The notes beneath the pieces were generated by a model. That model was not told the origin of the DNA, ran no database searches, and saw only the letters and a list, made by a program, of their open reading frames with translations. Made by a program: the position numbers and the translations under genes. Shown here piece after piece: positions 3,836 to 62,689 of a DNA stretch of 64,000 bases (position 1 is its first letter; each line of letters starts with the position of its first letter). Source of the DNA: Mobula hypostoma (lineage: Eukaryota); NCBI RefSeq assembly GCF_963921235.1, contig NC_086097.1, forward strand, positions 129,458,001-129,522,000, given 5' to 3'.

Positions 3836-4838
3836 CCCCTGAATGCTGCACTGTCACATACTTTGCTTGCCATGTTAAATCACGACACTGTCCATCCACT
3901 GAGATGGAAATAAAAGACCCCAAGTTCCAATTATACGGAGAGGAGTAACCTATCCACTACCTATCACTTAATTAACATCACTGAATTGGATGAACACACA
4001 CAAAATTCTAGAGGAACTTAGCAGGTCAAGCAACATCTACGGAAAGGAATAATGAGCCAACATTTTGGGCCAAAACCTTTCATTAAGACCAACGATCTGC
4101 ATCACCATTGCTGTCTACCGAACCTCACAGCAGAAAGACTAGCCACTTACTTTACGACATTGTTTCAGGAAACAAATTTCAAAAATTCTTTGTGTGAGGC
4201 AACTTGATGTGTTTTAAATTCATGAAAGATGGTAAGTAAATGTAATCATTGAGTATCTGATTATAAGAATCACATTGTGTTTCCAAAAACAAAAATAACC
4301 ACACAAGAGCTTTGTAGCTCGTGTAATGAAACTGCTATATGGAGATGGCGATGTGTAGTTATTAATAATGTCCCATCTGTTGTCTTCACAAGCATCAAGA
4401 AGCCAGTGATCTTCAGAGAGCAGCTGAACAGATGGGACAACACCAAATGTCATCTGCACCCACATTTCTACCAAAAAGAAGCCCAATACATGATTTGTGA
4501 TGAGGATGTAAAAGTATTACTCACTGGTGCAGAATATTAAGCAGATCTGTTGACTGCTGAAGAGCTCCACAGCTCCGAAGAGTTGATTTAAGATACTAAC
4601 TTTGTATTCCAGCAGTTGATTTTACTACACGTACACAGTGTTCTGTAGGCATTTGTTTTCATACCTGGTGGGGTGATAATGATAGGCAAATCTTTGTCTG
4701 CACTGCTATATTGCATGGCAAAAGCAATGCTGTCATCAGCAGCAACATTGTTAATCATAATGCTGATGAATAAGAACATATCCCCTACATTTACTGATAT
4801 TGCTCTTCTACATTCTTTTGGGACCAAAATACAACAGC

Positions 4839-5194: not shown

Positions 5195-5299
5195 ACAACA
5201 GCCTTTTTGAATACTGCTTACAAGATACAAACTCCAAGCTTTCTTAGAATCCCGCTGTCTCAAACTATTCAATGGGCCTTTTGATGCTAGAATCTGGTG

Positions 5300-5397
5300 C
5301 AACACATGAGGTGCTTAAGTAACTCAGTGGGTCAGACACCATCTGTGGAGGGAAATGGATAGTCGACGTTTCAAGTTGAGACCCTTCATCTGGACTC
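5300..5397 (-). mobile_element. Penelope-like terminal repeat fragment with degenerate hammerhead motif
   Basis: Homologous to 14899-15034 and 54100-54238; minus strand reads AGTC-CAGATGA-AGGGTCTCAACTT-GAAA-CGTC-GACT. Confidence 0.7.
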
Positions 5398-6063: not shown

Positions 6064-6296
6064 TGAACATAGAACATAGAATAGTACAGCACAGTACAGG
6101 CCTTTCGGCCCACAATGTTGTGCTGACCCTTAAACCCTGCCTTCCATATAACCCCCCATCTTAAATTCCTCCATTACCTGTCTAGTAGTCTCTTAAATTT
6201 CATTAGTGTATCTGCCTCCACCACTGACTCAGGCAGTGCATTCCATGCACCATCCACTCTCTCAGTAAAATACCTTCCTCTAATATCCCCCTTGAA
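6064..6296 (-). mobile_element. CR1 LINE 3' end
   Basis: (GAACATA)n tail and the CR1 3' UTR seen repeatedly in this window. Confidence 0.8.
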
Positions 6297-6543
6297 TAAA
6301 ACATCAAGGGTAGGTTTCCTTCCCCATGTTTGACCGGTTACCATGAGATTTCATGGGCTGTAGAGTCAAGGTTATGAGCTCCATGGGTTAATTCTTCCTC
6401 TCTGTATACCACTGTACCACCCTCTTTGGTAAATATACCCTGAAGTAGGATATGAAGGGAATTATGATGAAGGAGATGGGAACATTTTCTGTTAGGTTGT
6501 TGTTTGACTAGTCTGTCGGTCAGCCCTTCCAACGTAGGCACCA

Positions 6544-8160: not shown

Positions 8161-8829
8161 ATATGTTTCCATGAGAGACTAGGCTGGGAGAGACGGCTGT
8201 GTCTGAATTTGATGCTTAGATTGATGCTAGATGGTTAGTTTATTGTTATCCCCTCTGGGTTTCAATGTATGAGTTATAGCATAACTCATGAGGCAATTTC
8301 AGAATGCATTTAAAAGCCAGCCACATTGGGAGCATTGGGGTCACAAACATACCAAATTGTGTAAGGATAGCAAATTTTCTCTCTGAGCGAACCAACCACC
8401 TGTAAGACTTAGAACATCAATTAAAAATTTTTCTGCCTTCAATCATTGACTTGTGTCACACTATTCACCCCTTTTGAAGATATGAAAATATGATTTCATC
8501 AGGACTAATGGATCAACTGACTGAACACAATATTGATTTACCGTTCAGACCCAATTGAACCTTATTCTATCGTCAATCCTTCAATAACATACCAACAGCA
8601 AATTAAACTTATTGTTTTCAACCAGAATGAAGTATATCAAAAAAGAATTAACAATGTTCTTATTTCATATATGCTAAAAGAAGAAATAAAAATAAGAGGC
8701 AAAATTCACCTCCAAGGTATTACTACATTTTCTTGGTTCTGTTATGGCTCAGTTAATGAAGTGAATGACAAAGAAATTCTTATGGTCTACAATAATGTGT
8801 GATTATAAAGTATTTCGATGTGTTTTCAG

Positions 8830-8970
8830 AAATTTTACGACATACTTCCAGCACCATGTATAGATCTGGTTTCACAAACCCTAGGAAAAGTAATGCATTA
8901 GATTTAGGGCTCCTTAAAGGTCCAGAAGGGAACCCCAATGAACCTCTTTACTTCAAAGCTCTACTTCACG
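8830..8970 (+). other. Candidate isolated coding exon (141 nt, phase 1-1)
   Basis: tgttttcag acceptor, ACG|gtaagc donor, one open frame ILRHTSSTMYRSGFTNPRKSNALDLGLLKGPEGNPNEPLYFKALLH in non-repetitive DNA; protein not recognised. Confidence 0.3.
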
Positions 8971-9277
8971 GTAAGCTTTTTTTACACTCACATGGCACCC
9001 ACACAATATTGGTGTAAAGTATCATTGAAAAGGCAGAGGCTTCAATATTGTTCGAGTATTGTACCCAATGATCACAGCACAGTGCTTAAAACCAGAATTT
9101 CTGATCCACAAGCAAATAGGTCCCCAAGCGACAAGATTATTATGCCTTAAAATGCTATGGGCTTGACAGAGTACCCACCTTGAGAATGTTTTACCTCACA
9201 GGGGAATCATGAACTGGTGACAGTGTGCCAGGTGAGAAGTTAATCAATTAGAGATTGAGATAGAGAAGAATTTTCTA

Positions 9278-12790: not shown

Positions 12791-13164
12791 TACTAATAGT
12801 GTTGAGGTCTTCATTGATGACTATGGACAAACCTTATAATAATGCTATAACTTAGAGAGTCACAGAGACAGGGTCCTCAGCCCATCTAGTCTAGTCTCAA
12901 CCCACACCTGGACCATAGCCCTCAATACACCTTGCATCTATGCATTTATCCAAACTTCTCTTAGATGTTGATATCAAACCCACATTCACCATTAACACTG
13001 ACCTACTATTGGTTTTATTTTCTAGTTAGTATCATAAAGAAAACTCAATTGCTTCATTCGTTTTCATTTTTCATCTCTGTAAATGGGGCAATATGATAAA
13101 ACTTTCCATGCATGAGCATTCTTAATTTTGGCTATACTTTATTGCAAGATTAATTCTCATGGAA

Positions 13165-13410
13165 CACACAAGAAACTGCAGACACAGGAATCTGGAGCAA
13201 CAAACAAAAAATTGGAGGAACTCAGTGCGTCAGGCAGCAACCATGGAGGCAAATGGACAGTCAGACATTTCCAGTCGAGATCCCTCTCTGAACAGTCCTC
13301 TCCAACAAATCTAGTCCAGATGAAAGATCTTGACCTGAAATATCAATTTGTCCTCTTCCCTCCGCAGATGCTGCCTGACCTGTTAAATTCCTCCAGCATT
13401 TTGTTTGTTA
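13165..13410. mobile_element. Two Penelope-like termini in inverted orientation
   Basis: GGAGGAACTCAG..GTCAGGCAGCA arm followed by the reverse-complement arm TGCTGCCTGACCTG..TTCCTCCAGCA. Confidence 0.7.
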
Positions 13411-14379: not shown

Positions 14380-15110
14380 ACTAGAGGCTTTTTATCTGAA
14401 TGCAAGCAGCATCTGTAAAAAGATAAATGAGCTTACCACACAAATTAAATAAATGGGATTGATCTGATAGCCATTACCGAGATGCAGTTGTATGGTGCCA
14501 AGGTGAATATTAAGGCGTATCTGACATTTCAGAAGATCAGACAGCAAGACAAAACAAGTGAAGCAACGCTTTTAACAAAGGATACATCATGGCTGTGGTG
14601 AGGAATGACAGCAGCACAGAAGCTCAAGACGTGGAACCAATTTGGATGAAGACAAGAAGTATAAACTGCGAGAAGTCACTGCTGGGAATCATATAGGGAT
14701 TGCACTTTGTAAGCAATACAAATCTAGGAATAATCAGGTCTAGTAAGAAAGCTCTTGCAATAATCATGGGTAATTTGAATCATCATTTAGATTGGACAAG
14801 TTAATTTGGCGACATAGCATCTGTTCATAGAACAGTAACCAGCCCTTCTAGCCCAAAAACAAGATAAATAAAAGGGAAACCAGTAGATGTAATATATTCG
14901 CAAACACGAGGAAATCTGCAGATGCTGGAATTTCAAGCAACACACATAGAAGTTGCTGGTGAACGCAGCAGGCCAGGCAGCATCTCTAGGAAGAGGTACA
15001 GTCGACGTTTCGGGCCGAGACCCTTCGTCAGGTCAGATGTAATATATTAGGATTTTCAGAAGGTGTTCGATAAAATGCCCCATAAAAGTCATTGTACAAG
15101 ATAGCATAAG
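14380..15110 (+). mobile_element. Old, internally deleted CR1 fragment (endonuclease to RT start)
   Basis: LIAITE, IIMGNLN and PVDVIY..DFQKVFDKMP remnants. Confidence 0.6.
14899..15034 (-). mobile_element. Young 136-bp Penelope-like terminus with hammerhead core
   Basis: Perfect 14-bp TSD AGATGTAATATATT (14885-14898, 15035-15048); minus strand reads CTGACGA-AGGGTCTCGGCCC-GAAA-CGTC. Confidence 0.85.
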
Positions 15111-19900: not shown

Positions 19901-21065
19901 CACAGTACACCAAATGCTGGAGGAAGTCAGCAAGTCAGGCAGTATCTATGGAAATGAATAAACAATCAATGTTTCAGGTTGGGATTGTCTGTCATTAGTT
20001 TTCACATTTTAAACCTCAAGTCTACCCAGTCCGGTATCACTCTCAATATTATCAGATTTTTCATCAACAGCACACAGTTTAGTGCTCATTTTGAAACTGC
20101 AACTGGACTTTTTATCTTTTTCTCTTCCCTGTGCAGTCCATTTATTTTTGTCTGCCCAAGATGTTCTTTGTACGTAACCTACTTTGTTACACTCTTTGCG
20201 AGTTTCACCTTTAAAGCAACATTGAGCCCCTGCCACAATTTGCTCAGCCAGGCCAGTTCCTGTATTGATGCTGTAATTTTGTTCACACTCACTATCATTC
20301 CTGACTGCAACTTAATTACTTCTCGGTCTGTTGTTTCCATTGATACATCTATTTCAACTGCTCTTTTAAATGTAAGTTGTGCTTCAGTTAGGAGCCATTC
20401 TTAATGCATTCCTCTAAAACTCCACAAACTAAACAATCTCTCAGTGCACCATTAAGCCTATTATTGAACTGACAATGCTCAGTCTCTTCAATTCAGACAC
20501 ATATGCTGAAATAGACTCCCCTTCCTTTGGATTCTGGTTATGAAACTAAAGAGTTCTGCCATCAACAATGGTTTCAGTTCTAAATATTTCTGCCTTAGTT
20601 TGTCAAAATCATCAAAGCTCATGTCAGCTGGTTTGGTTGGAGCAGTTAAACCTCAATGCAAACTATATGCCTATAAACCCAATGCAGTCAGCAAAGTCGG
20701 AACTTGTTTCTCATTGGCTATTTCATTTGCTTTAAAGCACTACTGAATCCACTCTGTATATAACATCCAGTTATCTGTTGTGTAATCAAGTGCATTAATC
20801 TTTCCAATGCAGCCATTTATGTTCTTTTTTATTATTATTATCACCCAGTACTCACTGTTTATAAGTTTGTCCATTTTCTGCCATTTTTAACTCAACCGCC
20901 TTTCCTTTTTCAAAGATAACGCACTGCTCTGAAGGGAAAATAAATGTACTGCACTTTTTTTAACATGACCATTTCTTGCTGCACTTTTTAAAAAATCAAA
21001 CATCTCACTGTGCTTCAACAAGTAGGTAGTCGCTTCATGCTTGTTTACAGTTTCATCATCGCCAT

Positions 21066-26522: not shown

Positions 26523-26890
26523 TTTGATTTGATGACTCAATGGATATATTGATTTGATGGGATACTCGTATCATTTCGGGGCCATCCCTCCCCCTCCTGT
26601 CTTCTCCTATCATTTCGGGACGATCTCTCCCCCTCCAGTCTTCTCCTATCATTTCGGGACCATCTCTCCCCCTCCGGTCTTCTCCTATCATTTCGGGACC
26701 ATCTCTCCCCCTCCAGTCTTCTCCTATCTTTTTTGGTCTCCCCGTCCCCCTCCCACTTTCAAATCTCTTACTAGCTCTTCTTTCAGTTAGTCCTGACGAA
26801 GGGTCTTGGCCCGAAACGTCAACTGCACCTCTTCCTATAGATGCTGCCTGGCCTGCTGCGTTCACCAGCACTTTTTGTGTGTGTTGCTTC
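26523..26890 (+). mobile_element. Penelope-like 3' terminus with hammerhead motif
   Basis: Same young subfamily as 14899-15034; CTGACGA at 26793-26799 and GAAACGTC at 26813-26820. Confidence 0.82.
26569..26728 (+). repeat. 39-bp tandem repeat, 4 copies
   Basis: Unit TATCATTTCGGGACCATCTCTCCCCCTCCAGTCTTCTCC starting at 26569, 26608, 26647, 26686. Confidence 0.9.
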
Positions 26891-27394
26891 AAAGACTTGT
26901 GCTGATTGTTTGATATTTCCTGTACATATTTTGTGAATAAACTTTATTTCTTAAAATGAAAAATGCAACACCTTTGAATAGCTCTCAGCAGTGGAAATGC
27001 TGTCTGAATGTTGCTTTTCTGTAGCCTATGTGTACTGAGGCCAAGTTAAGATCTCCATGCAGTCTTAGGATGTCCTTCCCTGATACTAAGCACTATTCCA
27101 CACAAGGAAGTGGATTCACCAACTTAGCTATCAGGAAAATGAGTCACAACTGCTATCTGCTATCTTAAAATGTTCCAGATCTTAACATGATCCTTTTATA
27201 TCTGTGTGTGTCTTTGTGCAGATTTTCTGTATAGCTGTGCTCTCAGTTACCAGCATACAAAAATGTTCACTCTGGAAGAATAACTATCATAATATCATCA
27301 CTTCTTTAGAGAAAGAACTTTTGTTGGTTCGTTGGGAAATTTGTGTCCAGAATTGAACTCATAGATGGACATCACACACTATTTTTTTCATTAA

Positions 27395-29200: not shown

Positions 29201-31110
29201 TGGTTTTCCTCATCCACTTTCATGTTAAAATCCCAGCGATTATCATGACATTGCCTTTCTGACATGTCTTTTCTATCTCCTGCTGTAATTTGTAATCAAC
29301 ATCCCGGCTGCTGTTTGGAGGCCTGTATACAACTGCCATTAGGGTCCTTTTACCCTTACCATTTCTTAACTCAACCCATAGAGACTCTACACCTTCCAAT
29401 CCTATGTCATCCCTTTCCAATGATTTAATATTATTTCTTGTACACAGAGCCACACCAGCCCCTCTGTCTACTAACCTATCATTCCGGTATACCGTATATC
29501 CTTGGGCATTCAGCTCCCAATGGCAGCCATCCTTTAGCTAAATTTTAGAGAATGCCAGAAGGTCATATTTACCAATCTGTTGCTGAATTTCAAGATTGTC
29601 CATTTTATTCCTTATGCTGCGTGCATTCAAATACAACACTCTCAGTCCAGTATCTGTTGCTTTCTGTTTTAACTGCATCACACCTCTATTGTCCTGTATC
29701 CACTGCCCTGCCACTGGCTTTGAATAAGCTTCATCTTCTGCCTATCCTTTCTATAATCTCTGTTGCATGCTATCTTTTATTTAGTTCTGTCTTCCCCTTC
29801 CTTAGCCCTATCACTCTGGTTCCCATCCCCCTGCCAAATTAGTTTAAACCCTCCCTAACAGGTCTATTAAATGTGCCCACGAGGATATTGGACCCCTTTG
29901 GGTTCAGGTGTAACCTGTTCTTTTTGTACAGGTCGTACCTCCCCCAGAAGACAACCCAGTGATCCAGGAATCCGGAGCCCTGCCCCTACACCAGTCTCTC
30001 AGTCACACATTAATATGCCTGATCATGTTATTCTTGCACTCACTAGCACGTGGCACAGGCAGCAATCGTGAGATTACTACGCCAAAGGTCCTGCCTTTCA
30101 GCTTCCTACCTCTGAATTCTCTCTTCAGGACCTCCTCCCTTTTTCTACCTATGTCATTGGTACCAACATGTACCAAGACTTCTGGCTGTTCATCCTTGCC
30201 CTTCAGAATACTCTGCACCCGATTAGAAACATCCCGTACCCTGGCACCTGGGAGGCAACACACCATGCAGCAATCTCTAGCAGGCTGACAGAACGTCCTG
30301 TCTGTTCCCCTCATTATGGAATCCCCTATGACTACTGCATTCCTCATCTTCCTCTTTCCCTTCTGCTCCACAGAACCAGGCTCAGTGCCAGAGATCCAGT
30401 TGCCGTGGTCGTTCTCTGTCAGGTCATTCCCCTCAACCGCATCCAAAACGAGATAACGATTATTGAGGGGGATGGCCACAGGGGTGCCCTCTACTATCTG
30501 AGCTCTTTCCCTCGCTTCCCTGACAGTCACCCACTTATCGAACTCCTGCAGCCTCGGGGTGACTAACTCCCTGTAGCTCCTCTCTATCTCCTGTTCACTC
30601 TCCCTAATAAGCTGTAGGTCATCGAGCTGCAGCTCCAGATCCCTAACATGGTCCCTCAGAAACTGCATCTCAGTGCACTTGGCGCAGATGTGGCCATCTG
30701 GGAGACTGGAAGATTCCCAGGATTCCCACATCTGACACCCAGAGCAAATACTAACCCTACCAACATGCTTGCTATTCCTCAAAACAAATATGCGAAGAAA
30801 AACTAAAAACGAAGTCAACTTACCCACTTACCTTGATGAAGCCTGAATGAGCAAAAGCCTGTTGCTTCTACTCTTGGCACTGGCTTACTCCAGACAATGG
30901 CCACTCCGCTTATCCCTTCTGTACTTTTATTTAGTTCATAGAGCTCTGTTGATCCCACTGATAGGCCACATACAATGGACTAACACCCACGAAGCTCTCG
31001 TTTTAAATCACCAACTCTGACCTGCGAGAAGCTCATCGAGCTCAGTTGCCACCACTGATAGGCCCCGCACAATGGAATGACAGCCACGAAGCTCTCGTTT
31101 TTAATCACCT
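29200..31110 (-). mobile_element. CR1 LINE 5' portion (5' UTR, ORF1, start of ORF2 endonuclease)
   Basis: ORF1 below; ORF2 VESLWVELRN...VVYRPPNS...GDFN. Confidence 0.88.
30003..30766 (-). pseudogene. CR1 ORF1: Cys-rich zinc finger/leucine zipper plus SGNH/GDSL esterase domain
   Basis: CSGC...CAKC, heptad leucines, VVIGDSI, CLPGARV, VHVGTNDI; C-terminus frameshifted. Confidence 0.85.
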
Positions 31111-31885
31111 GAACATTTGCCATATTTCTGCTGTACATTTCCCTGAGAACATCTATTCCCAATTAATGCTTCCAAGTTGCTGCCTGATAGCTTCATATTT
31201 CCCCTTACTCCAATTAAACGCTTTCCTAGCATGTCTGTTCCTATCCCTCTCCAATTTTATGGTAAAGGAGATAGAATTGTGATCTCTAGCTCCAAAATGT
31301 TCTCCCACTAAGAGATCTGACACCTGACCAGGTTCACTTCCCAATACCAGATCAAGTACAGCCTCTCCTCTTGTAGGCTTACCTACATATTGTGTCAGGA
31401 AACCTTCCTGAACACACCTAACAAACTCCAACCCATCTAAACCCCTGGTTCTAGGGAGATGCCAATCAATACTTGGGAAATTAAAATCTCCCACCACGAC
31501 AACCCTGTTATTATTACACCTTTCCAGAATCTGTCTCCCTATCTGCTCATTGATGCCCTGTTACTATTGGGTGGTCTATAAAAAACACCCAGTAGAGTTA
31601 TTGACCCCCTCCTGTTCCTAACTTCCACCCACAGAGACTCAGTAGACAATCCCTCCCTGACTTCCTTCTTTTCTGCAGTCGTGACACTATCTCTGATCAG
31701 CAGTGCCACGCCCCAACCTCGTTTGCCTCCTTCGCTGTCTTTTCTGAAACATCTAAAACCTGGCACTCTATAACCATTCCTGCCCCTGAGCCATCCAAGT
31801 CTCTGTAATGGCCACAACATCATACCTCCAAGTACTGACCCACGCTCTAAGCTCATCCACTTTGTTCATGGTGCTTCTTGCATTT
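31111..31885 (-). mobile_element. CR1 ORF2 endonuclease fragment
   Basis: GKRGWGVALLI, ESLWVEV, GVFYRPPNS, VGDFNFPSIDW, PTRGEAVLDLVL. Confidence 0.85.
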
Positions 31886-33835: not shown

Positions 33836-36800
33836 TATAGAACATAGAACAGGAAAGCTCCGTTCAGACCCTCCAGCCTACGATATTGTGCAGGCCATTT
33901 AACCTACCCTGAGATCAACCTAATACTTCCCTCACACATGTCCCTCCATTTTTTCAAGCATGTGTTTATCTAAGAATCCCTTAAATGTCACTGATGTATC
34001 TGCCTCTACTGTCACCCCTGGAAGAGTGTTCTATACATCCACCACTCTCTGTGTAAAAAACCCACCTCTGACATCTCCCTAAATTTTCCTTCAATCACCT
34101 TAAAATAATGCACTCTCAAATTATTTATTTGCACCCAGTCTATCAATGCCTCTTATCATCTTATACACTTCTATCAAGTCACCTCTCATCTCACTTCAGT
34201 CCAAAGAGAAAACCCTCATAGAAACATAGAAACATAGAAAATAGGTGCAGGAGTAGGCCATTCGGCCCTTCGAGCCTGCACCGCCATTTATTATGATCAT
34301 GGCTGATCATCCAACTCAGAACCCAGCCTTCCCTCCATACCCCCTGACCCCTGTAGCCACAAGGGCCATATCTAACTTCCTTTTAAACATAGCTAATGAA
34401 CTGGCCTCAACAGTTTGCTGTGGCAGAGAATTCCACAGATTCACCACTCTCTGTGTGAAGAAGTTTTTCCTAACCTCGGTCCTAAAAGGCTTCCCCTCTA
34501 TCCTCAAACTGTGACCCCTCGTTCTAGACCTCCCCAACATCGGGAACAATCTTCCCGCATCTAGCCTGTCCAATCCCTTTAGGATCTTATACGTTTCAAT
34601 CAGATCCCCCCTCAATCTTCTAAATTCCAACGAGTACAAGCCCAGTTCATCCAGTCTTTCTTCATATGAAAGACCTGCCATCCCAGGAATCAATCTGGTG
34701 AACCTTCTTTGTACTCCCTCTATGGCAAGGATGTCTTTCCTCAGATTAGGGGACCAAAACTGCACACAATACTCCAGGTATGGTCTCACCAAGGCCTTGT
34801 ACAACTGCAGTAGTACCTCTCTGCTCCTGTACTCGAATCCTCTCGCTATAAATGCCAGCATACCGTTCGCCTTTTTCACCGCCTGCTGTACCTGCATGCC
34901 CACTTTCAATGACTGGTGTATAATGACACCCAGGTCTCGTTGCACCTCCCCTTTTCCTAATCGGCCACCATTCAGATAATAATCTGTTTTCCTATTTTTG
35001 CCACCAAAGTGGATAACTTCACATTTATCCACATTAAATTGCATCTGCCATGAGTTTGCCCACTCACCCAACCTATCCAAGTCACCCTGCATCCTCTTAG
35101 CATCCTCCTCACTGCTAACACTGCCACCCAGCTTTGTGTCATCCGCAAACTTGGAGATGCTGCATTTAATTCCCTCATCCAAGTCATTAATATATATTGT
35201 AAACAACTGGGGTCCCAGCACTGAGCCTTGCGGTACCCCACTAGTCACCGCCTGCCATTCTGAAAAGGTCCCGTTTATTCCCACTCTTTGCTTCCTGTCT
35301 GCTAACCAATTCTCCACCCACACCAATACCTTACCCCCAATACCGTGTGCTTTAAGTTTGCACACTAATCTCCTGTGTGGGACCTTGTCAAAAGCCTTTT
35401 GAAAATCCAAATATACCACATCCACTGGTTCTCCCCTATCCACTCTACTAGTTACATCCTCAAAAAATTCTATGAGATTCGTCAGACATGATTTTCCTTT
35501 CACAAATCCATGCTGACTTTGTCCGATCATTTCACCGCTTTCCAAATGTGCTGTTATCACATCCTTGATAACTGACTCCAGCAGTTTCCCCACCACCGAC
35601 GTTAGGCTAACCGGCCTATAATTCCCCGGTTTCTCTCTCCCTCCTTTTTTAAAAAGTGGGGTTACATTAGCCACCCTCCAATCCTCAGGAACTAGTCCAG
35701 AATCTAACGAGTTTTGAAAAATTAAGGCGCACTCTCTAATCCAGGCAACATCTGGGTAAATCTCCTCTGCACCATCCATACAGCTTCACAAGAGTCCTAT
35801 GATGAAGCAATCAGAAATGAACACACTGCTCCAAGTGTAGTCTAACCATAGTTTTACATAGCTGCAACATTACCTCATGGTTCTTGAACTTATATCCCCC
35901 AACTAATGAAGGCCAGCATATCATACACCTTCTTAATAACCTTATCAGTTTGAGGATGAATGGATGTGGACTCCAATATCCCTCTGTTCCTCCACACTAC
36001 TAAGACTCCTGTTTTTAACCTTGTATTTTGCCTTCATTTTCGACCTTCAAATTTGTATCCCTTTACACTTCTCCAGATTGAACTCCATCTGCCACTTCTC
36101 AGCCCAGCTCTGCATCCTAAGAATGCCCCGCTGTAACCTGCAACAACCTTCTACACCAACCACAGCACCACCAACCTTTGCATCATCTGCAAACTTACTC
36201 ACCTACAGTACCGTTCCATTTTCTCGTCCACGTCATTTATAAAAATCACAAAGAGGATCAGTCTCAGAACAGATTCTTGTGGAACACAACTAGTCACTAA
36301 TCTCTGGGTAGAATAAACTCCATGTTCAACCAAACTCTGCCTTCTATGGCAGGCCAGTTCTGAATCCATGCAGCAAAATTTCCCTGGATTCCATGCCTCC
36401 TAAATTTCTCTACAAGCGTACCATGGAGAACTTTGTTAAATGCCTTACTAAAATCCATATCCACTCTCTCCCCTCATCAGTATGTTTTCTCTCTTCCTTG
36501 AAGAATTCAATCAAGCTCATGAAGTACAATCTGCCTATCACAAAGCCATGTTGACCAACCCTAATTAGTGTACGCTTCTCCAAACGTTTGTAAATCTTGC
36601 CTCTAGGAATCCTTTCCAATAGCTTGCTCACCTCTGATGTAAGACTCACTGCTCTCGAATTCCAGGATTATCCCTATTACCTTTCTTGAACAAAGGAATA
36701 ACATTTGCAACCCTCCAATCTTCTGGTACTACACCTGACGAGAGAGAATGCAAAGATCATCACCAAAGATCTCTTCCTTCGCTATCCGTGGTAATCTGGG

Positions 36801-36995: not shown

Positions 36996-37268
36996 AGCGT
37001 ATGTCTTCGACCTGAAATATTAACTCCCTACTTCCTTCCACAGATGCTGCCTGACCTGCTGAATATTTCCAACAAATTTTTTGCTTTTATTCAATGCCGC
37101 CAATGTGGTTGACTCTAGATTGCCATCTTAGGTGGGGCAGTTGGAGTTTGACAATTGGGAAAAATGTTCATAACCAGTGGATTAAAATTCCAATGTCTGG
37201 TGAAGTAATTAACATGAAGAAAAGATTATCTTGACAATGAGGGTGGACTGAAATTCAATTGTAGACTT

Positions 37269-38722
37269 CAAGTCAAGTCAAGTCACTTTTTATTGTTACT
37301 TCAACCATAACTGCCGGTACAGTACACAGTAAAAACGAGACATTTTTCAGGACTATGGAGCTACATGAAACAATACAAAAACTACACTGAACTATGTAAA
37401 AACAACACAAAAACTACACTAGACTACAGACCTACCCAGGACTGCATAAAGTGCACAAAACAGTGCAGGCATTACTATAAATAATAAACAAGACAATCGG
37501 CACAGTAGAGGGCAGTAGGTTGGTGTCAATCCAGGCTCTGGGTATTGAGGAGTCTGATAGCTTGGGGGAAGAAGCTGTTACATAATCTGGTTGTGTGAGC
37601 CCGAATGCTTCGGTGCCTTTTGCCAGATGGCAGGAGGGAGAAGAGTTTGTATGAGGGGTATGTGGGTTCCTTCATAATCCTGTTTGCTTTACGGATGCAG
37701 CGTGTGGTGTAAATGGCTGTAATGGCGGGAAGAGAGACCCTGATGATCTTCTCAGCTGACCTCACTATCCGCTGCAGGGTCTTGCGATCTAAGATGGCGA
37801 AATTTCCGAACCAGGCAGTGATGCAGCTGCTCAGGATGCTCTCAGTACAACCTCTGTAGAATGTGGTGAGGATGGGGGGTGGGAAATGGACTTTTCTCAG
37901 CCTTCGCAGAAAGTAGAGACACTGCTGGGTTTTCTTTGCTAGGGAGATGGTGTTGAGGGACCAGGTGAGATTCTCCGCCAGGTGAACACCAAGAAATTTA
38001 GTGCTCTTAACGATCTCTACGGAGGAGTCGTCCATGTTCAGTGGAGAGAGTGGTCGCTCTGTGTCCTCCCAAAGTTAACAACCATCTCTTTTGTTTTGTT
38101 CACATTCAGAGACAGGTTGTTGGCTCTGCACCAGTCCGTTAGCCACTGCACCTCCTCTCTGTATGCTGACTCATTGTTCTTGCTGATGAGACCCACCACG
38201 GTTGTGTCATCAGTGAACTTAATGATGTGGTTCAAGCTGTGTGTTGCAGCACAGCCGTGGGTCAGCAGAGTGAACAGCAGTGGACTGAGCACACAGCCCT
38301 GGGGACCCCCCCCCCGTGCTCAGTGTGATGGTGTTGGAGATGCTGCTCCCGATCCGGACTGACTGAGGTCTCCCAGTCAGGAAGCCTAGGATCCAGTTGC
38401 AGAGGGAGGTGTTCAGGCCCAGTAGGCTCAGCTTTCCAATCAGTTTCTGAGGAATGATTGTGTTGAATGCTGAACTGAAGTCTATGAACGGCATTCGAGC
38501 TTACATGTCTTTTTTGTCCAGGTGGATTAGGGCTAGGAGGAGGGTGACGACAATGGCGTCATCTGTTGAACGGTTGGGACGGTACGCAAACTGCAGGGGG
38601 TCCAGTGATGGGGGCAGCAGGGTCTTGATGTGCCTCATGATGAGCCTCTCGAAACACTTCATGATGGTGGATGTGAGTGCAACGGGACGGTAGTCGTTGA
38701 GGCAGGACACTGAAGACTTCTT
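37269..38722 (-). mobile_element. Rex1/Babar LINE, 5'-truncated (RT to 3' end)
   Basis: [53 protein letters not shown]; (GACTT)n tail. Confidence 0.9.
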
Positions 38723-39428
38723 CAGAAGAGAATGGAGAAACAGGTGAAGCATACAACATTCCACAGATCTGAGGTAAGAGTGGAGAAGAAAGACTACCTG
38801 GATTGTTCATTAAAGGAGGAATGGTGATTCTTTTTCTCTCAACTTGACATGCTAAATGTTTCCAGTGCTTTCTGTGTTTTTTATTATTCTTTGCAGGAGT
38901 TGGTTCAAACTCAACGTGCTGGATGGCTTGATCTTGGGCTGTGAAAGAAAGAATCAGACTTACATATGTAGGGTCTTTCTCAGTCTTGGGATGTGCCAAA
39001 GAGTTCACAGCCAAGGAATTGCCTTACATATTGCAGCCAGTGTTGGAGCTCAAATATACCTAGCAACATCTCTCAATCAATAATCAGGTGAACAACCTGA
39101 TTAACCCTTTCTGGGTCAGCGCACCTCAAGATCTTTTCACTTCTTCGAAAGTGCTATGCAGTCTACTTGAGTGGTAAACACATCTTGGTTAATGTCTCTT
39201 TGGAAAAAAAAACACAAAATTAGGCCCTCATAACCAATAGGTATTATCCACTCAGAATTTTTTTTAACAATATAGCATTAATTTAGTCTATTTTATTTCC
39301 AAAGAGATAGCAATTACTTCTTTGTATTTTGTATATTCTCCTTGCTGGTATCTATTGGTTTTACAAATCCCTGTTACTGCATCATTGCTCAGATTTACAT
39401 CCGAAAATAATGAGGTATAGAATGGCAT

Positions 39429-39819
39429 CGGTGGCATCCGTTAGTCTCACAAGACCATGGATCTGTGCCTGGAAAGTCTTCCTTCTCCTCTCCAGGGCAC
39501 AAGCCTGGGCAAGGTTGTATGGAAGACCGGTAGTTGCCCACGCAGCAAGACTCCCCTCTCCACGACATCCATGTTGTCCAAGGGAAGGCCAAGGGCCAAT
39601 ACAGCTTGGCACCAATGTCGTCGCAGGAGTTGTCAGAACGAGGTTGAAGGCAACGTCGGACTGCCTTAGGGACTCCAGCTCCGGATTTGTCCTCAGGGTT
39701 TACTCCCGAAGCCTTTCCCATGAGTGGGTATGGCCGCAAGGCAGCGGAGGTTTGAAATCAGAGTTTTCCCTCTCTTAGATGGACTGCCTTCCCAGGCTGA
39801 CGAGCTCCATCTACCCGAA
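39429..39819 (-). mobile_element. Short non-coding retroelement (probably RTE-mobilised)
   Basis: 10-bp TSD AGAATGGCAT (39419-39428, 39820-39829); close copy at 62948-63320. Confidence 0.8.
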
Positions 39820-43619: not shown

Positions 43620-44968
43620 AATAGACAATAGACAATAGATGCAGGAGTAGGCTATTCGGCCCTTCGAGCCAGCACCACCATTCACTGTGATCATGGCTGA
43701 TTATCCACAATCAGTATCCAGTTCCTGCTTTATCCCCATAACCTTTGATTCCACTATCTTTAAGAGCTCTATCCATCTCTTTCTTGAAAGCATCCAGAGA
43801 CTTGGCCTCCACAGCCTTCTGGGGCAGAGCATTCCATATATCCACCACTCTCTGGGTGAAAAAGTTTTTCCTCAACTCCATTCTAAATGGCCTACCCCTT
43901 ATTCTTAAACAGTGGCCTCTAGTTCTGGACTCACCCATCAGCGGGAACATGCTTCCTGCCTGCAGCGTGTCCAATCCCTTAATAATCTTATATGTTTCAA
44001 TAAGATCCCCTCTCAGCCTTCTAAATTCCAGAGTATACAAGCCCAGTTGCTCAAATCTTTCAACATATGACAGTCCTGCCATCCCGGGAATTAACCTTGT
44101 GAACCTACTCTGCACTCCCTCAATACCAAGAATGTCCTTCCTCAAATTTGGAGACCAAAACTGCACACAGTACTCCAGGTGTGGTCTCACCAGGGCCCTG
44201 TACAGCTGCAGAAGGACCTCTTTGCTCTTATACTCAATTCCCCTTGTTATGAAGGCCAGCATGCCATTAGATTTCTTCACTGCTTGCTGTACTTGCATGC
44301 TTGCTTTCAGTGACTGATGTACAAGAACACCTAGATCTTGTTGTACTTCCCTTTTTCCTAACTTGACTCCATTTAGATAATAATCTGCCTTCCTGTTCTT
44401 ACCACCAAAGTGGATAACCTCACATTTATCCACATTAAACTGCATCTGCCATGCATCTGCCCACTCACCCAGCCTGTCCAAGTTACCCTGCATTCTCATA
44501 ACATCCTCTTTACATTTCACACTGTCACCCAGCTTTGTGTCATCGGCAAATTTGCTAATGTTACTTTTAATTCCCTCATCTAAATCATTTATATTGTAAA
44601 CAGCTGCGGTCCCAGCACTGAACCCTGCGGTACCCCATTGGTCACCACCTGCCATTCCAAAAGGGACCCGTTAGTCGCTACTGTTTGTTTTCTGTCAGCC
44701 AGCCAATTTTCAATCCATGTCTGTACTCTGCCCACTAATCTCCTATGTGGGACTTTATCAAAGGCTTTCTGAAAGTCCAGGTACACTACATCTACTGGCT
44801 CTTCCCTCCCTTGTCCATTTTCATAGTTACATCCTCAAAAAATTCCAGAAGATTAGTCAAGCACGATTTCCCCTTCATAAATCCATGCTGACTCAAACCG
44901 ATCCTGTTACTGCCATCCAGATGTGTCATAATTTCATCTTTGATAATTGACTCCAGCATCTTTCCTAC
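43620..44968 (-). mobile_element. CR1 LINE 3' part inserted in the Gypsy RT
   Basis: YLDFQKAFDKV, GVPQGSVLGP, FADDTKLG; (CAATAGA)n tail; few frameshifts. Confidence 0.92.
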
Positions 44969-50100: not shown

Positions 50101-51611
50101 GTAAGTCCTTTATCATGGGCAGCACTGGTTTTGCCTGAAGCTATAGCTACCCTAAAGGTAAGTGCTTAGATGGCAGAGGGATTCTATCATCGAACTTCAT
50201 AATAACACAGGGTTTGCCACAGCTGTGGTATGACGCTTTGTGATGGAGCAGCTAGCATTTAGATGAAATAGTGTCCTTCTTTGGTTTGAAATTATCATGT
50301 CTATTAATTTAGACAGACACTGGGTGCTGTATTTTTTTACCATATAATAATTGCTGTGGTGATTGTGGTGGGGGGTGGCGGTTGATGTATGAAGAGTCCT
50401 TCCCCATGCCTACTGATATCTCTCAGATGTAGATAACACCTACAAGCTGCCGTGAATGAAATCTTGGCATTACAAAATGTTACTGCGTGCTTCAGAGTTT
50501 ATGATGCTGCTACAATTGTATGAATGCAGGAGATTTTTATAAATACCTGCCTGGATACAGGAATAATTGCTTCAGGAATTAAAAGAGAAAATGTAGAGAA
50601 GCTCCCACAGCATTTGAGAAAAGTAAAGACAATTTAACTCTTTGAAAGCCTGTTGTAAACTGGGGCTGAGTGAGTGATATTTAGTATTATTCTCATAGCT
50701 TGTGTTTCTTGAGGATCTTCATTCAGCTCAATTGAGAAGGTCTCTTGGAGATAATTTATCGGTGCCCATAGTTAGAGCGGATGTCCTAAAGTTATCCAGC
50801 ACAGATGGAGGCTATTCAGCCCATTGTGTAAATGCTGGCTTCCTGAAAGAGCTTTAGATTTCATTCTAATTATCTTTGCTGTTACTAATGTAATCTAATA
50901 TATCAGATTTTCATTTATGGTGTTAAAAGGGCTTCAATCCTGTACTGAACACACTTTGGCCCCAAAAAGGTGCCATAAGGAAGATAGTGGGGAATATAGA
51001 AGCAAGGCCAAAGTGTCAATCTGGGTCTGAAGTTGGCTCAGTGGCAGGAAGTAAAGGGTCCCAGTTGAGAGCTGTTTCTGGTGACTGGAGTTCTGTAGAG
51101 TCAATGGTCATTGACGAGGTTCGTATAATTTCCATTAATGGTTAAGAGGTTAATGGAGGAGAAGGACAAAGATATTTGCAGGAGATGGTTTGGGTGATTG
51201 GAAAAACGATTGCAAATTGAATATAATCCAAAGAAAATGAAAATGGGGATTTGAAAGAAGGCAAGAGAATACACAATAACTAGGAAGTTATTCATTATCG
51301 TGGGCGAACAAAGTGGCCTTGGAATCAAATAGCTGGTAGTTAATTGATAAATTGCTTTATTATTTTCACATGTATCAAGGTGTAGTGAAAAACCATACCT
51401 TGCATATCATGTCATGTATACAGATCATTTCATCACAAGAGAGGGTATGGAAGAGAGTTATGAGTGTTGCTGGGACGGTAAGATTATAGCTATCAGAAAA
51501 GACTGGATTAATTTCTCTGTAACAGAGAAGGCGAAGAGAAGAGTTCACTATGCATGAGGGGTCAATTTAAAGTTAAGTAGGAAGGAACTTAACAGAGGGG
51601 CCGCTTGATTA

Positions 51612-54238
51612 CAAACAGGAGAAAATCTGCAGATGCTGGAAATCCAAGCAATACACACAAAATGCTGGAGGAACTCCGCAGGCCAGGCAGCATCTATGGA
51701 AAAGAGTAGAGTCGATGTTTTGGGCCGTCAACCTTCATCAGGACTGGTGAAACAAAAGATGAGGAGTCAGAGTAAGAAGGTGGGGGGGGGGAGGGGAGGA
51801 AGAAACACAAAGTGATAGGTGAAACCAGGTTGGGGGGGAGGAAGGATGAAGTAAAAAAGCTGAGGAGTGGATTGGTGAAAGAGAAACAGGGTTGGAGAAG
51901 AGGGAATCTGATAGGAGAGGACAGAAGGCCACAGAAGAAAGAAAAGGGGGAGGAGAACCAGAGGGAGGTGATGGACAGGTTAGAAGATAAGGTGAGAGAG
52001 GGAAATGGGATGGGGGAAGGGGGGAGGCACTACCAGAAGTTCAAAAATTGATGTTCATGCCATCAGGTTGGAGGCTACCCACTGCTCTCTACTCTCTCCG
52101 CACTAACCCTCACCTCGTCATTAAACCCACAGATAAGAGGGGTGCGGTAGTAGTCCAGCGGACTGATCTCTACCTTGCTGAGGCCCGGCGACAACTGTCT
52201 GACACCTCCTCTTACTTCCCCTCTAACAGGACCCTGATAAGGAGCACCAGACAATCGTCTCCCACACCATCACTGACCTTATGAATAGTGGGGATCGCGC
52301 ATCCACTATCATCAACCTTATAGTTCCCTTATCCCACATCTCCCTTTTCTACCTCCTATCCAAGATCCACAAATCTGCCTGTCCAGGTAGAACCATTGCT
52401 TCCGCTTGTTCCTGCCCCTCTGAACTTATATCTGCGTACCTCAACTCCGTTTTATCTCCCCTGGTTTGGTCCCTTCCTACCTACCTCCATGACACTTCAC
52501 ATGCTCTTGATCTTTTCAATGATTTCAAGTTCCCTGACCCCAATCATCTCATTTTCACTATGGATCTCCAGTCCCTATGCACCTCCATCATCCACCAGGA
52601 AGGCCTCAAAGCTGTCTACCAGACCACCACTCTCCTTTGTCTAGCGGAATGCTCTCTCAATAATTTCTCCTTTGGCTTTTCCCACTTCCTTCAAACAAAA
52701 GGTGTAGCCATGGGCACTCACATGGACCCCAGCTATGCCTGCCTGTTTGTTGGTTATGTGGAACAGTCTGTGCTCCGAACCTACACTGGTGTCACTTACC
52801 AACTTTTCCTATGCCACATCAATAACTGCATTAGTACTGCTTCCTTCACCCATGTGGAGCTTGTCGACTTTGTCAACTTCACCTCCAGCTTCCACCCTGC
52901 ATTCAAATTTAGCTGATCCATTTCCAGCACCTCACTCCCCTTTCTTGGTCTCTCTGTCTCTATCTCTGGAGACAACTTATCTACTGGTGTCTATTATAAA
53001 CCTACTGACTCTCACAGCTACCTGGACTATACATCTTCCTACATTATTACATGTAAAAATGCCATCCCCTTCTCTCAATTCCTCAGCCTCCGTCGCATCT
53101 GCTCTCAGGATGAAGCTCTTCATTCCAGAGCTAAAGAGGTGTCCTCCTTCTTCAAAGAAAGGGGCTTCCTGCCTCCACCATCTTCGCTGTCCTCAACTAT
53201 ATCTCTTCTGTTTCGCTCACATCTGCCCTCACCCGTCCTCCCACCACCCTACCAGGGATAGGGTTCATCTTGTCCTCACCTACCACCCCACCAGCCTCCA
53301 TGTCAAACACATAATTCTCTGTAACTTCCAACATCTCCAACGGGATCCCACGATCAATCAAATCTTTCTGTCCCCGCCACTTTCCACAGGGATCACTCCC
53401 TACTTGACTCCTCGTCCATCCGTCCTTCCCCACTGATCTCCCTCTTGGCACTTATCCCTGCAAGCAGAACAAGTGCTACATCTTCCCGTACACCTCCTCC
53501 CTCACCACCATTCAGGGCCCCAAACGGTCCGTCCAGGTGAGGCAACACTTCACATGTGAGTCGGCTGGGGTGATATACTGTGTTCGGTGCTCCCAGTGTA
53601 GCAGTGAGACCCGGCATAGACTGGGAGACTGCATTGCTGAGCACCTACCCTCCACCCACTAGAAAATGCGGGATCTCCAGTAACCAGCCATTTTAATTCC
53701 ACTTCCCACTCCCATTCCGACATGTCAGTTCATGGCCTCCTCTACTGTCGCGATGAGGGCACACCCAGGTTGAAGGAGCAACACCCTATATATCATCTGG
53801 GTAGCCTCCAACCTGATGGCATGAACATCAATTTCTTGATCTTCCGGTAATGACCCCCCTCCTTCACCATTCCCCATTCCATTTCCCTTCCTCACCTCAT
53901 CTTCTTCCCTGCCCATCACCTCCCCCTGGTGCTCCTCCCCCTTTTCTTTCATCCATGTCATTTTGTCTTCTCCTGTCAGATTCCACAATCTCCAGCCTGT
54001 ATCTTTTTCACCAATCAACTTCCCAGCTCTTTATACCCCCCACCCCCCCCCCCCCGGTTTCACCTATCACCTTGTGTTTCTTCTTCCCCTCACCCTCTCC
54101 CATCTTTTTACTCTGACTCCTCATCTTTTCTTCTCCAGTCCTGATGAAGGGTTTTGGCCCGAACCGTCAACTGTTTACTCTTTCCAATGGATGCTGCCTG
54201 GCCTGCTGAGTTACTCCAGCATTTTGTGTATGTAGCTT
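51612..54238 (+). mobile_element. Penelope-like retroelement: inverted terminal copy, RT, GIY-YIG endonuclease, pseudo-LTR
   Basis: VIKPTDKRGAVVV, FYLLSKIHK, FTMDLQSL, QTKGVAMGT, YYKPTDSHSYL, FTCESAGVIYCVRCSQC, HFNSTSH, GSLQPDGMN; 51640-52080 is the reverse complement of ~53799-54238; inserted in a CR1 3' end. Confidence 0.92.
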
Positions 54239-56294
54239 GAGGTATAGTTTGAAAAGAATTGGTAAAAAGGAGGGAGGTAAGGAAAAATATTTTCACCCAG
54301 AGGTGTTCGTGGTTAGAACTCAATGTCTGAATCATTGGTGGAGGCAGAAATTCTCTGACCTTTAAAAGTTCCTCGGTAGTGTACAATGTACTCGATGTGA
54401 CCTGCAGGTCTACAGACCTAATGCAAAAATATTAGATCAAGTCACATCACATTACTTCAACTGGCATGGATATGATGGGCCCAATGGCCTCCATCTTTAT
54501 CTGATTTCATAGTTGCTGCCACCTGATCTCCCTTTCATCCACTGCCAAGAAGCAACACTTATTATCCATCCTTTATTTCTCTTGAACAGGCTGGGACTGG
54601 AGTCATACATAGCCCAAGGCCAGGATGGCAGATTTCCTTCCTTGAAGCACTTGGATGCAACAGAAGTTCTCCAATGGCAATACAGTCTTTTCATGGTTGC
54701 AATTGCTAGCTTTTTAATTCATATTTATTTAATTAGCTCATTTTAAATTCTTCAACTGTCATGGTGGGATTTGAACTTACAACTCTTAGACAACAGCTCT
54801 ATTGATGACAAAGTCTGGCCTTGCTAGTATGCAAGATAGTCTGCTGATGGTTATGTGAATAGTGGCTACCTTGCTTGTTATACTGTTAGAGAACCATACA
54901 CTACATAATCAGGCCCTTCTGTCCATATTGTCAATGCCAACCATCTATACTAATCCCATCTAACTTTCTCAGCCAATAGATAAATTGTCTGCTGTAAAGT
55001 TAAATTGGTATTTTCATAAATTAGTTTATTACTGTCACATGTACAGAGGTATTGATAAATTGGTTTAATATTGTCACATTCAAAAACTTGTCTTGCATAC
55101 TGCCATACATATCAGTTCATTACAACAATATATTGAGGCAATAGTAAGTGGAACGGTAACAGAGTTCAGAATAAAGTGTCACAGTACAGGGATTGTGCAG
55201 CACAGGCAGACAATAAGGTGCAAAGTCACAAAGCAGATTGTTAAGGAGTCATAGGGTTATACAGCACAGAAATAGACCCTTCGGCCTACATGTTCATGCC
55301 ATCCTTTTTGTCCACTAATCCCATTTATACTAATCCTATTGTCCACATTAGAATATTCTATGCTTTGCCTCTATAACAATTCTATACCTCGTTATCATAT
55401 CTGATTCCAACACCTCCTCTGGCAGTACATTCTAGATATCGGTCACTCTGTGGAAACTTTCCTTTCAGAACCCCCTTAAATCTCCTTCTGCTCACCTTAA
55501 GTCTATACTATCTCCTTCATGATGGCAATATCATGGGAAAATCATTCTGGCAAACTGACCTATCTATGCCTCTCATAATCTTATGTATTTCTATAAGATT
55601 ATATAGCTTGTTTTGCTTCAAGGAAGACAAGCTCAGCCTATTCATACTATAGAAAGGATAGGTTTATGCTGGAGAGAGTACAGCGGTTCACCAGAATGTT
55701 GCCAGGAATGGAGGACTTCAGTGATGGAGAAACATTGGATGGGCTGAGCTTGTTTTCCATGGAGCAAAGGAGACTGCTCTACCATTTCTACAATGAGGCA
55801 CAATCAATTCAACTCTTCTGCCAGTGGCTTTCCCTCCACATCTTGCATTCTAACATCTCCATAACACGTTGTTTCCAGCTCTGGTTTCAGCCTTCCCAGT
55901 TCAATCCTAGCTGCAATCTTAGGTATGTGCAATCTATTCACACCTGTCCCAATGGTATTCCTTCATATATTCTTTTATCTGCTCAAATCATCCCTTTACC
56001 TCCACTAATGCTGCTTAATTTGCCAAGTTCTTCCATCCATTTTCATTTTGCTCTGGATTTCTGCATTTGCACTCTCTTGTGTCTCACAGCCTAGGGGTTA
56101 TGATTCTAGGCTAACAACTCAAAGGTCAGGAATTCAAGACAAGCTAATTTTATTTACCAATAGGATGTAGATATCTCTGGCATGGCCAAAAGTTATTGTT
56201 CCGTGCCCCCGCGCCCCCCCCGCGCGAAAAGTTTGCTTCTTGAAATACTCTAGTTCTTGTGGTGAAAGTGCTCCCATTGTTGGTGCTAAGTTCT

Positions 56295-56620
56295 AGGAGA
56301 CACAGGAAATGCTGGAATCTGGAGCAAGAAACAAGCTGTTGGAGGAATCAGAGTCAGGCAGCATCCGTGGAGGAAAATGAACCATCAGTGCTTCAAGTGA
56401 GGTCCTTCATCTAGACTGGATGAATAGAGGGGAGATGAAGAGGTGAGGAGGAGGAGCGGGGCAAGACTGGAAAGCGAATGGTGGATTCAGATGAGGAAGG
56501 TTAGGGAGATGGAGTCAAGAGGGGGAGGGAAGGGTGAAGATAGCTTCAGAAGTTGGCAAGTGGTAAGTGAAGGCAACTAAGGAATTATGGAATCGACCAA
56601 GAAAGGAATGTGAAGAACCA
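56295..56620 (-). mobile_element. Older Penelope-like terminal repeat
   Basis: ATGCTGGAATCTGGAGCAA...GTCAGGCAGCATC followed by a purine-rich tract as at 51640-52020. Confidence 0.65.
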
Positions 56621-61480: not shown

Positions 61481-62689
61481 TGGTGGGAGTGCTCAGAGGT
61501 GAGAAGGAAGGAGGTAAAAGGGTTATGGTTGGAGAGAGGGTGAATAGAGGCAAGAGGAGTGGTAGAGGAGTGAACCCAGCCTTTGTAACATTGCAAGGGG
61601 TATGAGAAAGGGGAAGTTGTATCTTATGGTGGAGGAATCTGAAATTATGGTGAATGATTCACTGGATGTGGAGGCTAGTGGACCACCAGAGGAAAAGGGG
61701 ACCTTTTGCTATTTCGAGGCAGCAGGAGCGGGATTAAGAGCTGACTTGTCCTCTGGGCAGTTGGAAAAGTGAAAGTAAGGGAAACATTCTTAAATATGCA
61801 TGTAAGTTTGTCTGAATTTTCTGCAAGATTGCTGTTTTCTTATCCATATAATTTAGTTTTGGCAAGGAAAAAATATGATCTGTCTGCAGTCATAGTTCCA
61901 GGGAAAGGCGTATAACCTTGCATCAAAATGTGCTGAATGAAATCCCATAGTCATTTGTAGCCAGTGGGAGTGTAGGCCCATGAGTTAGGCCAAAGCGCTG
62001 TCAACCACCTCCAACCTCTGACCTATGAACCAACTCTTCATTGCAAGAATGTGAGTTAGAAAACTCATCCTCAAATTCTTCTATCAACACCATCTTGAAG
62101 AAATGATAAAAGTTGCACAAAATCAATCTGCTACATAACCCATGATATAATGGTTGTGGGAGAGATTACGAGAAAGAAAGATTCATGCAAATAAGAAAAG
62201 GAACAATCCATTGCTATCAATGTTCATGAGGGTTGGGTAAAGAAAACCCATTTAAAGCAAAACATTGAGAAACCTGATTAATCTTGAGTCATGTTTCATT
62301 TTGTTATTCATTATTGACACACAATGAAAGTTAAGCAGGACTGATGGGAGTTTGGGCAAAGGTGATATAATTGTCAAACTGGAGTCCAGGGTTCACTTAC
62401 ATTGTCATCGTAAAGTGGAGGAGAGGATCTCCTGTCTGTTGGAAAAGCAGCTCTGTATTTAATCTATTACAAAAGAGGAGCTTTTCTACAACTGGTGAAA
62501 CAAAAAAAAACTGCAAGGCTGAAAACCCAAAGTAATGCTGAAGTACTCAGCAGGCCAGGCAGCATATGTGGAAAAAAAACACTTCAAACTGACAATCTTT
62601 CATCAGAATTGTTTTTTCATCTCTCCAGATGCTAAGTATCTCCATTATTTACCTGCACTTTTACCTGTTGTTAGTGCTCCAAAATCAGT

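Follow-up and report, generated by a model that had tools for sequence, protein, structure and literature searches.

A minimal type I hammerhead motif in the terminal repeat of a high-copy, likely Neptune-type Penelope-like element of the ray Mobula hypostoma

Minimal hammerhead ribozymes (min-HHRs) have been described in the terminal repeats (pLTRs) of metazoan Penelope-like elements (PLEs), including Xena, Poseidon, and Neptune of fishes, and the kind of motif reported here is already known from that work (Cervera and De la Pena 2014, PMC4209133). Motifs without stem III have been modelled to gain it by the pairing of 2 copies (PMC4209133; PMC6765202), and in vitro monomers did not cleave and multimers cleaved weakly (PMC4209133). 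In a Poseidon element of Anolis, the motif cleaved only with the element's own protein, insertion used uncut RNA, and 2 RT start sites define the tail (PMC11167929). A C-x(2-5)-C-x2-C linker is given for Neptune and Nematis and as absent from Penelope/Poseidon in the accessible text of PMC8557442, and only Neptune and Poseidon were found among vertebrate PLEs in the available part of a recent preprint (Li et al. 2026, bioRxiv 10.64898/2026.07.22.740005), which also reports retrozymes in one chondrichthyan genome with a mean unit of 363 bp.

The window analyzed here, a stretch of 64,000 nucleotides (64 kb) of M. hypostoma DNA, contains a motif of this kind (Table 1). The min-HHR core C3-U4-G5-A6-N7-G8-A9...G12-A13-A14-A15.1...U16.1-H17 is complete in the focal copy (26793-26799, 26813-26816, and 26819-26820), stem II is closed by G10.1-C11.1 with one extra base (A26800) after A9, and loop III is absent, positions 15.2-16.2 being palindromic (ACGT, 26816-26819). 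A first-pass annotation, made from the letters alone, had claimed a minimal type I hammerhead with this core, the extra A, a 4-bp stem II, and the palindromic ACGU, and each of these parts was read directly; its cut site after GUC at 26820 also agrees with our reading, and its end at 26825 is right, whereas the motif starts at 26788 and not at 26784. The extra A after A9 belongs to the published PLE hammerhead consensus (PMC4209133). The mismatch it noted at the first stem I pair was seen as C26792 against A26821; 4 outer pairs are still possible. A min-HHR has at least 3 core-adjacent stem I pairs, and the descriptor gives 0 contiguous pairs for this copy.

Table 1. Features of the hammerhead-bearing repeat family in the window; C3 is the first core nucleotide of each motif.
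Feature	Position	Strand	Remarks
Minimal type I hammerhead motif	26788..26825	+	Core intact, first stem I pair broken, predicted cut after 26820
Stem I 5' strand TAGTC	26788-26792	+	Direct reading
C3-A9 core CTGACGA	26793-26799	+	Direct reading
Extra A after A9	26800	+	Direct reading
Stem II, 4 bp: GGGT / GCCC, loop CTTG	26801-26804 / 26809-26812	+	
G12-A15.1 GAAA	26813-26816	+	Direct reading
C15.2-G16.2-U16.1-C17 (CGTC)	26817-26820	+	Direct reading
Stem I 3' strand AACTG	26821-26825	+	Direct reading
Solo 3' terminal repeat (pLTR) fragment with focal motif	26565..26890	+	3' end of the short, tail-less kind, 97 nt past C3
39-bp tandem unit, 4.3 copies, 93% matches	26565..26732	+	
PLE ORF, 5'-truncated, frameshifted: RT, degraded Cys linker, GIY-YIG	52078..53850	+	69% identical over 322 aa to P0021
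3' pLTR of the 52078-53850 element, hammerhead homologue	53851..54240	+	C3 at 54141; A15.1 and 1.1 changed; short end +99
Inverted arm of the same insertion	51611..52081	-	81% over 448 nt to forward end; C3 at 51741; tail to +130
Young copy, ~135 nt	14899..15034	-	Core and stem II unbroken; 5' end 1-3 nt ahead of C3; tail complete
Two old copies arranged head to head	13163..13409	.	C3 near 13291 - and 13317 +
Old decayed copy	3992..4091	-	
Old copy, A at core position 4	5282..5397	-	
Old copy, ~200 nt upstream pLTR, A at core position 4	56294..56620	-	
Old fragment, begins within stem II	19906..19983	-	
Old fragment, begins within stem II	37004..37087	+	
Strongly decayed copy	62534..62607	-	

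We analyzed the element that carries the motif. A broken RT-GIY-YIG element in the same window (52078-54240) has a 3' pLTR to which the focal copy can be aligned at 73% over ~200 nt, which upholds the earlier proposal that the repeat is a ribozyme-bearing PLE end, and by its sequence the focal copy is a solo PLE end. The accompanying description of the repeat as SINE-like holds for its size and abundance only; from end to end the unit shows homology to the PLE pLTR. No target-site duplication was found for the focal copy (26565..26890), the best flank match being 7 nt, and the 39-bp tandem upstream, where a stretch of the pLTR has been amplified locally, ends at 26732, ahead of the ribozyme, and excludes the motif. 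Searches by tblastn with shark and ray PLE proteins matched 52084-53653, from RT through endonuclease, with E values to 7e-141, and the ORF is 66% identical to a Mobula gene model and 56-58% to shark models; a single ORF with RT and C-terminal GIY-YIG, as in EN+ PLEs, was thereby found in the sister copy 52078-53850. Its motif has C3 ~290 nt 3' of the stop codons (~53850) of the broken ORF, and an inverted ~470-nt arm lies directly 5' of the ORF remnant, its own hammerhead homologue changed at G12 and G16.2. The further EN+ PLE layout of pLTR, inverted 5'-truncated arm, and 30-40 bp tail at one end was likewise found (51611-52081). Both of the 2 inverted pairs in the window have the tail on one side only (+130 vs +99 and +128 vs +92 from C3), and 2 kinds of 3' end, about 30-40 nt apart, occur among the window copies.

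Pfam RVT_1 and GIY-YIG domains were identified in intact relatives, with GIY-YIG in the close relatives P0028, P0026, and P0029, and the C-x(2-5)-C-x2-C linker between RT and endonuclease is intact in these 3 and in P0031; the window copy retains 2 of the 3 cysteines, the third being missing. Pfam gave no match on the window's own broken PLE frames. From the linker cysteines the element is likely, though not conclusively, of Neptune type. Gene models P0025 and P0026, named as host-gene isoforms in 2 rays, consist almost wholly of the RT and endonuclease of this PLE and are probable annotation artefacts.

We identified 12 copies of the motif-bearing repeat in the window with nhmmer at E of 1.4e-9 or better, the next match being at E 0.11; the profile had been seeded with 8 of these copies, and the other 4 were independent of it. 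All 8 homologues listed in the first-pass annotation were recovered, along with 3 that it had not listed (about 13291 -, 19994 -, and 36993 +), and its consensus matches the majority line of the 12 copies except for the T at 11.1. Core and stem II are intact in 2 of the 12, and in neither does the surrounding genomic sequence close stem I. The copy at 14899..15034 is bracketed by a 14-bp target-site duplication (14885-14898 and 15035-15048) that fixes its start, and in the 13163..13409 pair each arm begins at the stem I edge, with the tail on the minus arm and the short end on the plus arm. A at core position 4 together with a similar downstream flank was found in 4 of the 12 copies (13317 +, 13291 -, 5392 -, and 56413 -); these probably represent, from their sequences, an older subfamily whose source had a non-canonical core, and a lineage with such a core thus appears to have spread. 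The accessible part of Perreault 2011 contains no U4A and describes U4C as weak in vitro and tolerated in vivo.

Covariation in stems I and II and conservation of core over flanks had been suggested as checks on the ribozyme, and neither came out in favor among the window copies: the covariation score across the 12 was 0.205, with 441 of 500 shuffles as high, and the 3' flank, better conserved than the core, holds the majority of the best-kept columns. Both results are what neutrally decaying dead copies would give. The check is informative only between source lineages, where it lends modest support, whereas the dead copies of the window fail it.

Genome-wide figures for the family rest on contigs of 4 public runs (52,947, 34,412, 19,260, and 4,445 contigs aligned per run) that were aligned to 26700-26910 at 80% likeness, with contig depth biased toward the window reference sequence and 40 of 44 variant rows listed. 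G at 26821, which restores the stem I pair, accounts for 78, 75, 46, and 85% of depth in the 4 runs, and C instead of T26807 for 73, 73, 54, and 90%; in both places the focal copy thus departs from the majority by a CpG-type transition. Among the rows listed, variation at the remaining stem I bases stays below 4%, except at 26824 in one run, and with G at 26821 and these bases stable the family has at least 3 core-adjacent stem I pairs. The earlier expectation that a family consensus restores stem I therefore holds, as the majority in public runs closes the pair. Within the 38-nt motif, 11 places vary (at least 4% in some run), and 10 of the 11 fall within its five CpG dinucleotides among the rows listed. 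Outside CpG, 1 of 28 motif places and 17 of 80 flank places vary (p=0.02, from 40 of 44 rows), or 15 of 78 flank places with 26826-27 counted as CpG (p=0.04), and p would be 0.47-0.56 if all 4 unlisted rows fell in the motif; this comparison leaves out 26700-26744, where depth is low and changes are private to the focal copy. Summed depth gives motif/flank ratios of about 5x10^5, 3x10^5, and 3x10^4, which are orders of magnitude and not copy numbers.

U at 11.1 (window 26812) reaches 52, 48, and 65% in 3 runs, with its partner change G12A at 4.5-8.5%, and in the fourth run both stand at about 25%. From run to run the U11.1 share moves with the share of C at 26781, the 2 places being unphased, which suggests a subfamily with a G-U wobble; U11.1 likely marks one large subfamily with this closing wobble, missing from a more distant species and far above the level of CpG decay. 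We also observed G8A (26798) at 1.3% in run X15, whereas the DNA runs have it at 6.9, 6.8, and 10.7%; for the remaining CpG changes, X15 is lower only by about a third to half; this is a single run of contigs, RNA by guess and uninformative on strand, ends, and level. No sites where many molecules begin or end were reported on the aligned stretch in these contig data, nor any splice-like joints, for which the donor probably lies outside that stretch.

Related-protein loci were recovered from metagenome contigs (the best 80 of 85). Of 81 loci, all but one PLE-related, 7 gave a total of 8 matches to the hammerhead descriptor, and none of the 10 Markov controls gave any. Two loci, L010 and L012, whose proteins are 46-49% identical to the query, have this core with its extra A at 70-130 nt 3' of the ORF match; stem II there is nearly identical, and their stem I strands are quite different in sequence yet still paired. 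Among 20 related loci inspected 3' of the ORF, a descriptor match lies within 600 nt in 2 and at ~655 nt in one more, with 2 near misses, and most have no motif within 600 nt. In one PLE-related contig the same hammerhead-like motif occurs twice, at a distance of 3.5 kb, once in each flanking repeat (L059:31 and L059:3519). The flank-pattern scan returned 0 matches in metagenome contigs and 1 match, without a hammerhead, in viral contigs, and protein-based scans of viral and prokaryote contigs found no relatives.

Taken as a whole, the locus very probably derives from a high-copy PLE, likely Neptune, whose 3' terminal repeat carries a minimal type I hammerhead; the focal copy is a solo end fragment that likely does not cleave. 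By analogy, the ribozyme of the source element is likely dimer-type and protein-assisted. In tandem source-element RNA, 2 motifs would pair through the palindromic ACGU and so build stem III, and the dimer would cut after GUC, slowly and probably helped by the element's protein, as published PLE work suggests. The structure of the copies suggests that reverse transcription likely begins at either ~97 or ~130 nt behind C3 and would run through the uncut motif; the absence of cut-site starts and the two 3' ends in the window fit the Anolis-type model. Most genomic copies would be short 3' ends that afterwards decay chiefly at the motif's five CpG sites, and A26821, a likely CpG transition, costs the focal copy its core-closing pair and strengthens its predicted misfold.

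Chance resemblance to a hammerhead was considered and is refuted, its remaining probability being negligible. No Rfam hammerhead family matched in the window at E up to 10, likely because the stem-III-less form fits curated models poorly, and the focal fold is not unusually stable against shuffles (z -1.8); however, the core-plus-stem-II pattern occurs twice in the 64-kb window against 0.00 expected (100 shuffles), has homologues there, sits in a PLE pLTR, is laid out identically to the consensus in the accessible literature, and recurs in distant PLE loci. It is very improbable that the focal copy is an active ribozyme cutting a host transcript. Its core nucleotides and stem II are all intact and the outer stem I pairs could form, but the first pair is broken, stem III cannot form without a partner, and the nearest intact-core copy is 11.8 kb off, on the other strand, and without the stem I 5' strand; monomers of this class, as cited above, did not cleave in vitro (PMC4209133). 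Folding predictions also place the copy in a misfold, which at -11.6 kcal/mol is favored over the hammerhead layout at -5.7 and ties up the core: U4-G8 of the lone motif pairs with C15.2-1.1, and A26821 turns a U-G pair into U-A while removing the stem I closing pair. For 2 copies, the cofold minimum differs from the active dimer layout. The copy is likely inactive, and the ORF lists identified no host gene around it. A less remote, though still doubtful, reading is that the motif derives from a hammerhead but is catalytically dispensable, kept as a structural, promoter, or protein-binding element while retrotransposition proceeds via uncut RNA. Not one of the 12 copies in the window has its start at the cut site, and the 6 rows listed per run include no pile-up of loose ends at 26821, with a further 881 loose-end rows unlisted; absent cut-site copies do not test cleavage, because cut RNA may not serve as template. 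The A common at position 4 in the old group and the excess of U11.1 over its partner CpG change would also agree with dispensability, as would the in vitro insertion of ribozyme mutants of the Anolis element (PMC11167929) and the spread of Naiads without canonical hammerheads (PMC8557442). Yet distant relatives keep core and pairing despite a different stem I sequence, and the G10.1-U11.1 wobble occurs in several published PLE motifs (PMC4209133 and its supplement).

The outer edge of stem I deserves mention in its own right. The stem I 5' strand (26788-26792 and homologues) doubles as an initiator-like heptamer at which many short copies start, and the same strand also reads as AG behind a pyrimidine tract with a branch-point-like sequence. 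A second pyrimidine tract and AG, followed by an ATG ~20 nt behind the cut site, lies at 26826-26845 and in homologues, where the part of the repeat with the strongest conservation begins. This ATG, at 21 nt from the cut site, is a candidate ORF start whose frame differs between subfamilies.

We think it unlikely that motif and tail together make up a non-autonomous element in its own right, of a SINE-like or retrozyme-like kind, whose RNA starts at the outer stem I edge and which is moved in trans by PLE protein. Five to 6 of the 12 window copies begin 1-5 nt before C3 (2 others begin inside stem II and 4 far upstream), one such start is proven by the 14-bp target-site duplication, contigs of the public runs show recurrent joints to 26788-26790, and the A of an initiator-like heptamer stands at -4 in 4 of the 4 copies that keep the upstream part. 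These heptamers are common in the pLTR (5-10 in each), however, and the bases at this place are already fixed by stem I; loose ends at 26789 also come from other subfamilies with different upstream sequence, the same ends would result if RT halted where the structure begins, the focal copy reaches ~230 nt further upstream, and the window has no tandem motif-bearing units. The Penelope element of Drosophila virilis has been described with an internal promoter and an intron that ends at helix I. A quite speculative extension, which we consider improbable, is that the outer stem I edge is a true RNA 5' boundary, either because transcription begins there at the initiator-like YYAGTCY or because AG/UC acts as a 3' splice site, as in the D. 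virilis element, so that a ~135-nt hammerhead-plus-tail RNA would be non-autonomous and copied uncut by Neptune protein, altered-core lineages (A4 and U11.1) spreading as well. As such motifs are frequent in this pLTR, the stem I edge start serves as a lead only; if it were true, a family of ~10^5 copies would let population statistics test what the PLE hammerhead is for.

Other repeats were also annotated in the window. LINE fragments lie at 34316-35785 -, 43711-44670 -, and 30003-31560 -, the first with Pfam RVT_1 at E 4e-34, and by their motifs they are CR1-like. Fragments of another LINE family (RVT_1 and an ALKBH8_N-type domain) lie at 37526-38074 - and 47424-48207 +, a Tc1/mariner-type transposase fragment at 6885-7565 + (Pfam HTH_Tnp_Tc3_2), and 2 similar copies of a further repeat, with near-identical spurious reading frames, at 39311-39778 and 62743-63490. 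A long AT-rich inverted repeat at 59301-59392, with a weak sub-threshold microRNA match, is possibly a MITE-like hairpin.

To the question of what PLE hammerheads do, the focal copy contributes nothing. The family, in contrast, with its several subfamilies, its discrete copy ends on both the 5' and the 3' side, and a natural sample of unusual size, is suited to studying whether retrotransposition depends on cleavage, and if cleavage were demonstrated, min-HHRs would extend to cartilaginous fishes, an expected extension. Literature on Penelope and Neptune in rays, sharks, and Chondrichthyes contained no paper naming this ray family, with Repbase, Dfam, and the supplement of the 2026 preprint beyond reach.

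In comparison with the non-LTR retrozymes of animals (accessible part of Li et al. 2026, bioRxiv 10.64898/2026.07.22.740005), the ray family shares the type I hammerhead and the origin from a PLE pLTR, whereas retrozymes are tandem with a motif per unit and the ray copies are dispersed or inverted; the 12 copies include no head-to-tail motif pair, and the 39-bp tandem lacks the motif. The Poseidon element PAc of Anolis carolinensis, as far as the available text of Frangieh et al. 2024 (PMC11167929) goes, is alike in its pLTR hammerhead, in 2 RT start sites defining the tail, and in having no reads or copies that start at the cut site; it belongs to another clade, and its ORF starts inside the ribozyme, whereas the window holds no ORF 5' end. 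With the Neptune-clade EN+ PLEs of Craig et al. 2021 (PMC8557442, accessible sections), the ray element has in common the RT, Cys linker, and C-terminal GIY-YIG, as well as the pLTR with an adjacent inverted 5'-truncated arm and a 30-40 bp tail at one end, a likeness by features and not by phylogeny; Nematis also has a reduced linker, and the window copy is broken. A further match is with the PLE min-HHRs of PMC4209133, among whose examined Table S1 and Figure S3 rows there is no cartilaginous fish: both are type I, with CUGANGA and one extra base before stem II, G10.1-C11.1, GAAAC-GUH without loop III, and a short stem I, the 4-bp stem II of the ray lying at the short end of the range. In both, the motifs are mostly solo copies of truncated elements numbering thousands per genome, and with 12 copies per 64 kb, only 2 of them with intact cores, the ray family seemingly stands far above the 4,000-9,000 motifs of coelacanth and Xenopus.
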